A DNA stretch of 64,000 nt from positions 1-64,000 of the IMG/VR virus record IMGVR_UViG_3300049893_000724; one strand, written 5' to 3'. This document shows, piece after piece, positions 7,943 to 39,455 of the stretch (positions are counted from its first letter, which is position 1; every line of letters begins with the position of its first letter). Position numbers and translations under genes: made by a program. The stretch comes from a virus. Under the pieces are notes generated by a model. The model ran no database searches and was not told where the DNA came from. It worked only from the letters and a program-made list of their open reading frames with translations.

Positions 7943-8014
7943 AGCCCCCGATCCGATTTGAACGGACGACCGACGGTTTACAAAACCGTTGCTCTACCAC
8001 TGAGCTACAAGGGC
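7943..8014 (-). tRNA. tRNA-Thr(UGU)
   Basis: GCCCTTGTAGCTCAGTGGTAGAGCAACGGTTTTGTAAACCGTCGGTCGTCCGTTCAAATCGGATCGGGGGCT folds as a cloverleaf, anticodon TGT, no encoded CCA. Confidence 0.95.
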
Positions 8015-8333: not shown

Positions 8334-8417
8334 TAGGGCGAGGGGGACTTGAACCCCCACGGGATTACTCCCAACAGATTTTAAGTCTGGTGTGTCTACC
8401 ACTTCCACCACCGCCCC
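8334..8417 (-). tRNA. tRNA-Leu(UAA)
   Basis: GGGGCGGTGGTGGAAGTGGTAGACACACCAGACTTAAAATCTGTTGGGAGTAATCCCGTGGGGGTTCAAGTCCCCCTCGCCCTA; long variable arm, anticodon TAA. Confidence 0.95.
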
Positions 8418-33522: not shown

Positions 33523-33621
33523 TTATTTTGCTGCTACTAGCGTAGCAAGAGATGCCTTTTGGCGTCTCTCTTCTTTTTGTTTTTGTTCTTTAATGATTTG
33601 TAGGAAGTTAAGTTTCTTCAT
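33523..33621 (-). CDS. Small basic peptide (32 aa)
   Basis: MKKLNFLQIIKEQKQKEERRQKASLATLVAAK; ATGA overlap with upstream stop. Confidence 0.65.
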   Translation of the reverse strand: MKKLNFLQIIKEQKQKEERRQKASLATLVAAK

Positions 33622-33770
33622 TTTACCCTCTCCATGGAAGACTTGTTTCCATTTTCATCAACATAAAACATTGTTCCACGGTAGATTTCTACGTGTGGTT
33701 CACGCTTAAATGTTTGATTGGGGCGTTCGATGGTGTTATATTCTACACCACGGTATACTACTTTTGACAT
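33618..33770 (-). CDS. DUF4278-like small protein (50 aa)
   Basis: MSKVVYRGVEYNT...EIYRGTMFY with two YRG motifs; AAGGAG SD; directly downstream of glnA aptamers. Confidence 0.8.
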   Translation of the reverse strand: MSKVVYRGVEYNTIERPNQTFKREPHVEIYRGTMFYVDENGNKSSMERVK

Positions 33771-33801
33771 TAGGTTTCTCCTTAATGGTTTAGGTTAAAG
33801 A

Positions 33802-33855
33802 GCGTTCCTTCAGTCGGCGTTTGCGTTCGCTATTTGAGAATAGCGAATGAACGAT
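33802..33855 (-). ncRNA. Glutamine riboswitch aptamer (glnA motif), compact copy
   Basis: AUCGUUCA-UUCGCUAUU-CUCA-AAUAGCGAA-CGCAAACGCCGACUGAAG-GAACG: P1 CGUUC/GAACG, 9-bp P2, conserved 3' GCCGACUGAAGGAACG. Confidence 0.85.
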
Positions 33856-34105
33856 CCGTTCCGCGTCGGCTTACTTCCGTCCTATTCAGTTCAGCACCTA
33901 GTCACAACATCCTTTCGGAGTTCTAATAGCAGTCGGTCTTCCATCTTTTGGTAAACTACATCGTCGTTTTTAACAATGTCCATTAGTTCCCACGCCGCAT
34001 TGCAACTTATTCTAACTGGATATTCAGTTTTAAGTTGCGGTGAGGCAAAAGAAAGAAGTGGAACCCATGCTAAAAGCAAAAGTGCTTTAGTCATAGGATG
34101 AACGG
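33856..34105 (-). ncRNA. Split glnA-type glutamine aptamer with an ORF in the P2 loop
   Basis: 5' half CCGUUCA-UCCUAU (34105-34093); 3' half AUAGGA-CGGAAGUAAGCCGACGCG-GAACGG (33885-33856); P1 and P2 each give 6 perfect pairs. Confidence 0.7.
33891..34094 (-). CDS. 67-aa protein with signal-peptide-like N-terminus, embedded in the first aptamer
   Basis: MTKALLLLAWVPLLSFAS then ...SC...TRC; AUG lies in the P2 5' strand, stop 5 nt before the P2 3' strand. Confidence 0.65.
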   Translation of the reverse strand: MTKALLLLAWVPLLSFASPQLKTEYPVRISCNAAWELMDIVKNDDVVYQKMEDRLLLELRKDVVTRC

Positions 34106-34114
34106 TAGGGGATT

Positions 34115-34143
34115 ATTATACCCCTATTCAACCTATATAGCAA
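34115..34143 (-). promoter_or_regulatory. sigma70-type promoter of the riboswitch operon
   Basis: TTGCTA-N17-TATAAT; predicted start about 34108-34106, immediately before aptamer P1. Confidence 0.7.
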
Positions 34144-34152
34144 GTTTTGTGT

Positions 34153-34166
34153 GTATTTCCTGATAC
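34153..34166. promoter_or_regulatory. NtcA binding site
   Basis: tGTA-TCAGGAAA-TACa (GTA-N8-TAC with T/A flanks), 32 nt upstream of the -10 element. Confidence 0.65.
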
Positions 34167-34173
34167 AATTTTC

Positions 34174-34500
34174 CTATCGCTCAATATAACTTAACGTATG
34201 ATTGGTTGCGTAAAGTTGTTGAATGATAATATCACATCCAATCTTAGGATTACAATCTCCACAGGTATATACATCAACTGCTGCTTTACCTTCTTCGGGC
34301 CAAGTATGAATACTAATATGACTTTCAGACAATAAACAAATCACAGTAACTCCTTGTGGTTCAAACTTTTTTGAAATTGTTTGAACCACTGTAGCACCAC
34401 TTGCTACCGCTGCATTTTCTAATAGGTCTATAAGGCAACGTTCATCGTCCAAAAGAACAAACGAACAACCATATAAATTAAGTAGATAATGTTTCCCCAT
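34174..34500 (-). CDS. speD: S-adenosylmethionine decarboxylase proenzyme
   Basis: GKHYLLNLYGC...FEPQGVTVICLLSESHISIHTWPE...DVYTCG. Confidence 0.92.
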   Translation of the reverse strand: MGKHYLLNLYGCSFVLLDDERCLIDLLENAAVASGATVVQTISKKFEPQGVTVICLLSESHISIHTWPEEGKAAVDVYTCGDCNPKIGCDIIIQQLYATNHTLSYIER

Positions 34501-39304: not shown

Positions 39305-39375
39305 TTAGTAAGACCATCAGGGGAATGGTGGAGTTACTATGCTCCCCGCACCCTCAGCGGGGATATGAGAGACGT
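39305..39375 (-). ncRNA. Structured psbA leader, likely PhotoRC-II motif
   Basis: Hairpins CCCCGC-UGAGGGU-GCGGGG and ACCAU-UCCCUG-AUGGU with complementary loops (AGGG/CCCU); coordinates approximate. Confidence 0.55.
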
Positions 39376-39455
39376 GATTTATACACCCATAGGTCTCGGT
39401 TAACGGGTGTTTAACAATGTTAAGATTTATGAGAAATCCGTAACATTTGTTTACC

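Follow-up and report, generated by a model that had tools for sequence, protein, structure and literature searches.

A probable glutamine aptamer that encloses a whole gene in a leader of a T4-like cyanomyovirus

Riboswitch aptamers are usually pictured as compact, non-coding domains of the 5' untranslated region. Among those described, the glutamine-I aptamer (RF01739) is found in the leader of Synechocystis gifB, which encodes IF17, a glutamine synthetase inactivating factor, and genes of the DUF4278 family have also been linked to glutamine aptamers (PMC6212724; PMC2864571). Cyanobacterial glutamine aptamers that precede DUF4278 and IF17 genes are ON switches, in which binding of the ligand is proposed to open a duplex masking the ribosome-binding site (RBS) (PMC6212724). 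Our study concerns a stretch of 64 000 nucleotides (nt) of viral DNA (positions 1 to 64 000 of IMG/VR record IMGVR_UViG_3300049893_000724; hereafter the window), which is part of the 184-kb record of a T4-like cyanomyovirus. The region 33856–34105 of the window probably folds into a glnA-class glutamine aptamer (aptamer A) in which an entire gene, an open reading frame (ORF) of 67 codons termed ORF67, makes up the P2 hairpin loop, and here the aptamer helix encloses a gene of translated type. The minus strand is the coding strand of all genes around this nested-gene leader, and every feature of the window located below lies on that strand.

The leader shares with glutamine-I RNAs and the gifB leader a P1 helix of CGUUC/GAACG and a P2 helix starting with U-A and C-G pairs, as well as the CGGAAGUA junction, a small P3, the frequent tandem arrangement, a DUF4278 gene downstream and a cyanobacterial or marine setting (PMC6212724; PMC2864571). 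It differs in that the P2 loop measures 207 nt, against approximately 4 nt in the RF01739 model, and holds a gene whose start codon lies in P2; in addition, the core of aptamer A has CG in place of GAAG, and the RNA appears to start at P1. Tandem compact aptamers are present in the cyanophages S-CREM1 and S-PM2, and the element of S-CREM1 was annotated as a glnA riboswitch by its authors (PMC9964418). The A and B cores of both phages resemble those of the window nearly base for base, their promoter occupies the same position and the same YRG/DUF4278 gene lies downstream, while S-PM2 also has speD upstream, like the window. When the window was compared with phage records by BLAST, homology to other cyanophages started exactly at the aptamer 3' half, with 90 % identity to S-CREM1, and the first aptamer of S-CREM1 and S-PM2, CGUUCAUCC-GAAA-GGACGGAAGUAAGCCGACGCGGAACGG, corresponds to the two halves of the window joined by a tetraloop. 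The P2 loop of aptamer A is therefore 4 nt (GAAA or AUAU) in these two phages, whereas it reads UAUG-ORF67-AUA in the window.

Aptamer A begins with the P1 5' strand CCGUUC (34100–34105), which pairs with GAACGG (33861–33856) and is followed by an A at 34099, and continues with the P2 5' strand UCCUAU (34093–34098), which ends on the first two bases (A and U) of the ORF67 start codon. ORF67 (33891–34094) comprises 67 codons and a UGA, runs from its AUG at 34094–34092 to the UGA at 33893–33891, and fills the P2 loop. Five nucleotides (ACUGA) past its stop codon lies the P2 3' strand AUAGGA (33880–33885), which leads into the junction and P3 mini-hairpin CGGAAGUAAGCCGACGCG (33862–33879), an A-type core without the GAAG of RF01739, and then into the P1 3' strand GAACGG (33856–33861), which was read from the sequence and is paired in the minimum free energy (MFE) fold. 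P1 and P2 are each a perfect 6-bp duplex, and they close long-range over the loop filled by ORF67. The original prediction had described the split P1 and P2 strands, the ORF, the spacer and an adjoining compact aptamer, all of which we recovered base for base on the minus strand. The sequence also bore out its reading that the AU of the start codon is paired in P2, that no Shine–Dalgarno sequence (SD) precedes this AUG, there being no purine-rich one ahead of it, and that GAAG is missing before the P1 3' strand.

Compared feature by feature with RF01739, aptamer A has the CGUUC/GAACG helix, at 6 bp, and a hairpin directly after CGUUCA that is closed by U-A and C-G pairs. Its ACGGAAGUAAGCCGAC agrees with the model consensus for the junction preceding the small P3, as it does in the alignments of compact A-type aptamers. 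The GAAG of the E-loop strand is absent before the P1 3' strand, where aptamer A reads CGCG-GAACGG, and it is missing from all A-type aptamers, compact ones included, which carry NCG at that place. Neither the gathering-threshold scan nor the permissive scan of the window with Rfam matched the split aptamer A (RF01739 gathering score 35), and we ascribe this to a limit of the tool, because a covariance model cannot span an insert of 207 nt. Compact A-type aptamers score 20.4–25.4 bits on RF01739, and on the glutamine-II model RF01704 they reach 24.6 bits in S-PM2 and 22.7 bits in S-SSM7, under its gathering score of 33. By sequence, the A-type core thus reads as an intermediate between both validated glutamine aptamer classes that lies below either threshold. 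The motif CGTTCAYYC occurs twice in the 64-kb window, both times in the glutamine leader; it is not on this count that a chance origin is excluded, but because 79 of 125 related loci show the split layout again and P2 covaries across the ORF.

This recurrence was established by scanning IMG/VR with the A-type 3' core, which yielded at least 120 stretches on 118 contigs, and all counts for relatives given here rest on the matches listed. The pattern consisted of the A core alone, so that the 5' halves, P2 and the ORFs lay outside it. The resulting set of 125 loci comprised 118 metagenomic viral contigs, 6 records of isolates or genome collections, and the window. A nested ORF was present in P2 of aptamer A, of aptamer B or of both in 79 of the 125 listed loci, amounting to 96 nested ORFs, and the window is therefore not a single odd case. 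With the states given in the order A/B, 33 listed loci were compact/ORF, 27 compact/compact, 18 ORF/compact, which is the state of the window, and 17 ORF/ORF; the remaining loci were cut by contig ends, leaving their state incomplete. Aptamer A held 43 of the nested ORFs (61–69 amino acids) and aptamer B 53 (50–65 amino acids). The two aptamers were found together in related loci, with a spacer of 2–3 nt. A separate observation concerns locus L049 (minus orientation, 591–1210), in which compact A and B stand approximately 570 nt apart, and this insertion seems to lie between the aptamers, not inside one.

The placement of the nested ORFs relative to the aptamer was uniform. In all 96, the AUG lay inside the P2 5' strand and followed CGUUCA at 3–6 nt, and in every case the stop codon fell within or beside the aptamer 3' half. 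For B-type ORFs, the core GCCGAC-UGA-AGG supplied the stop, as UGA or UAA, in 52 of 53 cases, and in the same 52 of 53 the core, read as GAC GCA AAA GCC GAC, encoded DAKAD before the stop. Among A-type ORFs, 20 of 43 stopped at the UAA of GGA CGC AAG UAA, which encodes GRK, while members of the ORF67 family stopped 4–16 nt ahead of the core. Altogether, 72 of the 96 nested ORFs read out of the core, and examples of such dual-coded cores are L003:796-817 (phage P-SSM4), L004:783-804 and L023. Both aptamers of P-SSM4 hold ORFs (PSSM4_169.2 and 169.3), and S-SSM7 has one in the second (SSSM7_289), its first aptamer being A-type and compact. P-SSM4 also carries a full manA RNA (RF01745, 184 bits; L003:119-304) approximately 90 nt upstream of its doubly nested glutamine leader, which places two riboswitch-like phage RNAs, orphan or known, side by side. 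When 185 579 species genomes were searched for the A core, five matches emerged, two in single-cell or metagenome-assembled genomes (MAGs) of Prochlorococcus and three on contigs in MAGs of heterotrophic bacteria. Judged from these loci, the nested-gene leader appears to be a widespread and conserved module that may occupy either aptamer or both.

Whether pairing across the ORF is selected was assessed by counting pairs from the junction outward with a junction-anchored script, using slid and shuffled controls. This way of counting was chosen because MAFFT failed to keep the P2 5' strands in register between families; the controls ignore kinship among loci. At P2 positions 1–6, canonical pairs made up 89.6 % of cells in aptamer A (37 distinct) and 92.8 % in aptamer B (46 distinct), and these values fell to 31–58 % of cells when the 3' partner was slid by 1–3 nt. 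Position 3 of P2 in aptamer B was C-G in 24 cases, U-A in 20 and U-G in 2, and position 4 was A-U in 19, C-G in 14, U-A in 7 and U-G in 6, with no mismatch at either; position 5 was U-A in 24, A-U in 16, U-G in 5 and U-U in 1. The cognate P2 duplex had an energy of −9.0 (A) and −11.4 (B) kcal/mol, compared to −6.2 and −6.1 for non-cognate pairings, and the observed mean energy was not attained in any of 300 partner shuffles. The 5' partners at positions 3–5 are partly noncoding and lie upstream of the AUG, whereas the 3' partners are the codons just before DAKAD, and constraint on the protein cannot therefore explain the match. Some P2 helices reach 14–20 bp and join N-terminal with C-terminal codons, and the covariation of P2 spans ORFs of 50–69 codons. 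In the ORF67 family itself, AUAGGA is fixed, while the spacer between stop codon and AUAGGA varies in length and sequence. It is very probable, in our view, that P1 and P2 do pair over this distance and that selection maintains the fold. The idea of a riboswitch with an ORF as its P2 loop, put forward in the original prediction, gains support from the compact versions in S-CREM1 and S-PM2, from the covariation of P2 and from the conserved ORFs.

The nested ORFs behave as coding sequences. None of the 96 contained an in-frame stop, compared to an average of 5–6 in the other two frames (4–7 for the ORF67 entry), and the expected conservation of the ORF frame in homologues was thereby upheld. Codon comparisons were performed on protein-guided alignments, as a gap-free version had been misled by indels, and they revealed an excess of third-position substitutions together with strongly conserved motifs in four nested families. 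We take from these patterns that the nested ORFs are genuine coding sequences. ORF67 homologues formed 251 clusters, all metagenomic, at 75–96 % identity, and 35 of the 67 residues were invariant in an alignment of 33 sequences, with conserved cysteines at C31 and C67. The N-terminus (MTKALLLLAWVPLLSFA-SPQ) has the appearance of a Sec signal peptide. An AlphaFold2 model of low confidence (pLDDT, the predicted local distance difference test, of 64) contained helices only, two in number and bracketed by C31 and C67. ORF67 matched no Pfam or PHROG family and gave no tblastn match among 50 697 phage records, and the Atlas returned its own viral cluster alone. Other nested families (phrog_6471 and phrog_504) are built from a short hydrophobic start, a cysteine, approximately 35–40 residues and a further cysteine. 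Comparison of the nested families by hhalign gave 98 % for F3 with F4 and 91 % for F2 (slot A) with F4 (slot B), while F1, the ORF67 family, was weakly similar to the others. Because slot A and slot B families are related in this way, the aptamer and its nested gene seem to share a long common history, as opposed to repeated random insertion.

Several findings weigh against reading aptamer A as a closed glutamine aptamer. Both long-range helices form part of the MFE structure computed for the 357-nt leader (ViennaRNA; −97.5 kcal/mol, z=−3.4), yet the centroid fold of the same leader is without them, and two 6-bp helices are a weak closure for a loop of 207 nt. The A-type core has no GAAG and compact A-type aptamers score below the gathering score of 35 for RF01739, a score which the adjoining aptamer B also just misses (33.6). 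The demand that the distant halves covary in homologues was answered in part only: P2 covaries, but through other nested families, being invariant within the ORF67 family, and P1 (CGUUC/GAACG) is invariant in all listed loci and thus without covariation. The MFE fold additionally pairs ORF67 codons 6–8 (AGCACUU, 34071–34077) with the last codons (AGGUGCU, 33893–33899), beyond P2, and a second long-range helix inside the coding sequence is possible in this model.

The sharing of one sequence by all P1 strands is also adverse, as it makes a second topology possible. In such an interlaced double aptamer, the A 5' and B 3' strands would form an outer helix with the canonical GAAG and the A 3' and B 5' strands an inner one, with ORF67 still enclosed by the P2 of A. 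This arrangement would suit the lack of GAAG in A and of the GU of AAGUA in B, as well as the constant co-occurrence of the two aptamers at a spacing of 2–3 nt. The bases flanking the helices do not separate the tandem from the interlaced topology, which again counts against our interpretation: at the flanking positions of 62 distinct loci, 26 favoured tandem A and 21 the nested form, so that neither was preferred. In the window, however, C34105, before the A 5' strand, pairs with G33856, after the A 3' strand, and not with the C after the B 3' strand, and the MFE fold shows the tandem form. We therefore regard the interlaced topology as unlikely.

An alternative that we rate as slightly less probable still is that ORF67 is passive cargo, a small gene carried in a tolerant loop, where P2 is kept so that the aptamer can go on regulating the DUF4278 gene and ORF67 is not coupled to glutamine. 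Compact and ORF-holding versions do coexist in close relatives, P2 loops of riboswitches are generally variable, and the nested protein is without an assigned function. Against this stands the position of the ORF ends: in all 96 cases the AUG is inside the P2 5' strand at 3–6 nt from the junction and lacks an SD, the stop is always within or beside the 3' half with 72 of 96 ORFs read from the core, and a ribosome at either end would, by geometry, have to melt the aptamer. The relatedness of the families in slots A and B (F2–F4 at 91 % and F3–F4 at 98 % by hhalign) is likewise not what this explanation leads one to expect.

It is very improbable that aptamer A is dead, an insertion having destroyed it and left its halves as decaying relics with compact B alone at work, even though Rfam finds only B in the window and the core of A is non-canonical. 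Both halves are conserved base for base across divergent phages, AUAGGA is invariant beside a variable spacer, P2 covaries, and the 17 listed loci with ORFs in both aptamers retain both cores intact. A circularly permuted local hairpin, in which the 3' half of an aptamer would fold with the 5' half of the one that follows and no pairing would span the ORF, can practically be dismissed, for although a GAACG-GAU-CGUUC hairpin could form at every A/B junction, the A 3' half of the window is followed by a complete aptamer B, and across 50 distinct junctions the permuted P2 averaged 3.0 bp and −4.9 kcal/mol, compared to 7.3 bp and −11.4 kcal/mol for the cognate one, which it equalled or beat at only 2 of the 50.

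The compact aptamer B (33799–33855), of glnA type with GAAG, starts at the base right after aptamer A (33855). It matched RF01739 over model positions 1–53 of 53 with 33.6 bits (E=2.5e-5), under the gathering score of 35, and was the sole Rfam glutamine match in the window in the permissive scan, with none at gathering thresholds; P1, P2 and GAAG are present and its junction is 2 nt shorter. Immediately past P1 of B stands CUCUUUAA, which in the MFE fold forms a hairpin (33778–33802) with UUAAGGAG, the SD region of the gene downstream. The same SD hairpin was predicted in relatives whose leader runs on as GGAACG-CUCUUUAA, and the SD of the gene after B was paired in the local MFE fold of 47 of 82 related leaders. 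That gene (33618–33770) encodes a YRG-repeat protein of 50 amino acids, which matched PF14105 with 17.9 bits (E=0.004), short of the gathering score of 25.3, and phrog_5049 with E=5e-8. We call it DUF4278-like because of its YRG repeats, its place after glutamine aptamers and the phrog_5049 match. The genes downstream of aptamer B were YRG-repeat, DUF4278-like genes in 81 of 82 relatives. A basic ORF of 32 amino acids, rich in lysine and glutamate (33523–33621), overlaps the DUF4278-like gene by ATGA and had no family match in a Pfam search.

Upstream of aptamer A, the stop codon of speD, which encodes S-adenosylmethionine decarboxylase (PF02675, E=5e-35), lies at 34176–34174. Shortly 3' of it we read an NtcA-type box, GTA-N8-TAC (GTATCAGGAAATAC, 34153–34166), and a sigma-70-type promoter was predicted at 34115–34143, with TTGCTA at 34143–34138, a 17-nt spacer and TATAAT at 34120–34115. 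The arrangement was frequent among 117 distinct related upstream sequences. GTA-N8-TAC occurred no more than 90 nt upstream of CGUUCA in 102 of these, mostly 58–62 nt upstream, against a background density of 0.00046 per nt, and NtcA may bind at this box. A −10 box with at most one mismatch was found in 88, ending 7–10 nt before CGUUCA in 63, usually with TTGACT 17–18 nt upstream, and a −35 box with at most two mismatches was found in 52. Because the −10 box ends 7–10 nt before CGUUCA, the RNA should start at approximately 34106–34108, so that the predicted transcript begins at P1 and the ORF67 AUG lies approximately 12 nt from its 5' end. The GTA-N8-TAC box of the window sits just upstream of the −35, and its distance from the −10 exceeds that of classical NtcA-activated promoters by approximately 10 nt. 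A short GC hairpin, AGGGG...CCCCU (34107–34125), has TATAAT in its loop; relatives have other hairpins around their −10 boxes, such as GGTC-TATAAT-GACC, and these are reminiscent of the promoter-early stem-loops of T4-type phages. The hairpin in the window may also serve to end the speD transcript.

Metatranscriptome contigs from four runs covered ORF67 and the aptamers, with a summed depth 10–100 times that over speD; these data are assembled contigs, mostly of relatives at 85–99 % identity, which cannot show start site, strand or translation. The contrast in depth fits a strong promoter between speD and P1. The contig of one relative stops at position 34118 against an Illumina adapter, inside the predicted −10 box, and this end misfits the predicted start site. 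Taken together, we think it likely that the region leads a small nitrogen operon of a cyanophage, which consists in this order of an NtcA box, an early-type promoter, aptamer A, aptamer B and an IF17-like DUF4278 gene. Elsewhere, the window encodes a ThyX-like ORF, a PhotoRC-II RNA (39329–39422; 83.8 bits) and two tRNA genes (7943–8014 and 8334–8417), the RNA genes being ordinary for cyanomyoviruses.

On how the leader would work, our confidence decreases from step to step. That the split aptamer A binds glutamine is still rather likely, judging from its core and its compact relatives, while we give even odds that ORF67 translation is under its control or, in turn, gates it. An initiating ribosome at the ORF67 AUG would cover the whole 5' half of the aptamer, and a terminating one would cover the P2 3' strand, or in many relatives would stop inside the core; because of this footprint geometry at both ends, translation and aptamer folding are expected to be mutually exclusive. 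Conversely, a folded and glutamine-stabilised aptamer A would sequester the ORF67 AUG in P2. High glutamine would then turn ORF67 off and open the RBS of the DUF4278 gene, as in the Synechocystis gifB switch, and the aptamer would remain open when glutamine is low or ORF67 is heavily translated. We tentatively propose a ribosome-gated riboswitch, although we hold it somewhat more apt to be wrong than right: the sensor would fold when the nested gene is neither being initiated nor terminated, and the bound sensor would hide the start codon, giving a reciprocal switch that would yield small two-cysteine proteins when glutamine is low and an IF17-like glutamine synthetase inhibitor when it is high.

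If the ribosome-gated model holds, it would represent a new class of expression platform, in which the aptamer's own stem is the platform for an internal gene. Independently of that model, one sequence appears to be selected at once as an RNA fold, as the context of a start codon and, in relatives, as a peptide, and the leader offers a natural test system for ribosome movement versus ligand-dependent folding on one mRNA. The NtcA box, the glutamine aptamers and the IF17-like gene also show a possible way for a phage to read the nitrogen status of its host. Cultured phages with this layout exist (P-SSM4 and S-SSM7), so that experiments are feasible. Our study furthermore points to a blind spot in annotation, as covariance-model scans miss aptamers that hold ORFs. 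The glnA alignment of Weinberg 2010 (PMC2864571) contains at least one metagenomic sequence in which compact A was aligned and an ORF-holding B lies in the unaligned flank. A full-text literature search, which did not cover Ames and Breaker 2011, turned up no account of a gene lying within a glutamine aptamer or any other. On the strength of the sequence comparisons, the nested-gene architecture is real, conserved and apparently undescribed.

Among known systems, glutamine-II RNAs (RF01704, the Downstream-peptide motif) have CGUUCA, a short hairpin and CGCA..GU...GGAACG without GAAG, like the A-type core, and are also associated with DUF4278; compact A-type aptamers score 23–25 bits on this model, below its gathering score of 33. 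They differ from the window in that their 3' strand forms a pseudoknot over the RBS of the downstream peptide gene and no gene lies inside the fold. The group I introns of T4-type phages carry ORFs in peripheral loops, so that distant halves of the RNA must pair and translation and folding may interfere, but these are self-splicing ribozymes with homing endonuclease genes, whereas the nested aptamer is a metabolite-sensor fold that involves neither splicing nor an endonuclease. In SgrS/SgrT and RNAIII/hld, one RNA encodes a small protein and also acts through its structure, and in the RNA of MS2-type phages long-range pairing hides a start codon. The dual-function RNAs and the MS2-type RNA lack an aptamer for a ligand, and in them the coding and the structural parts do not enclose one another as they do here.

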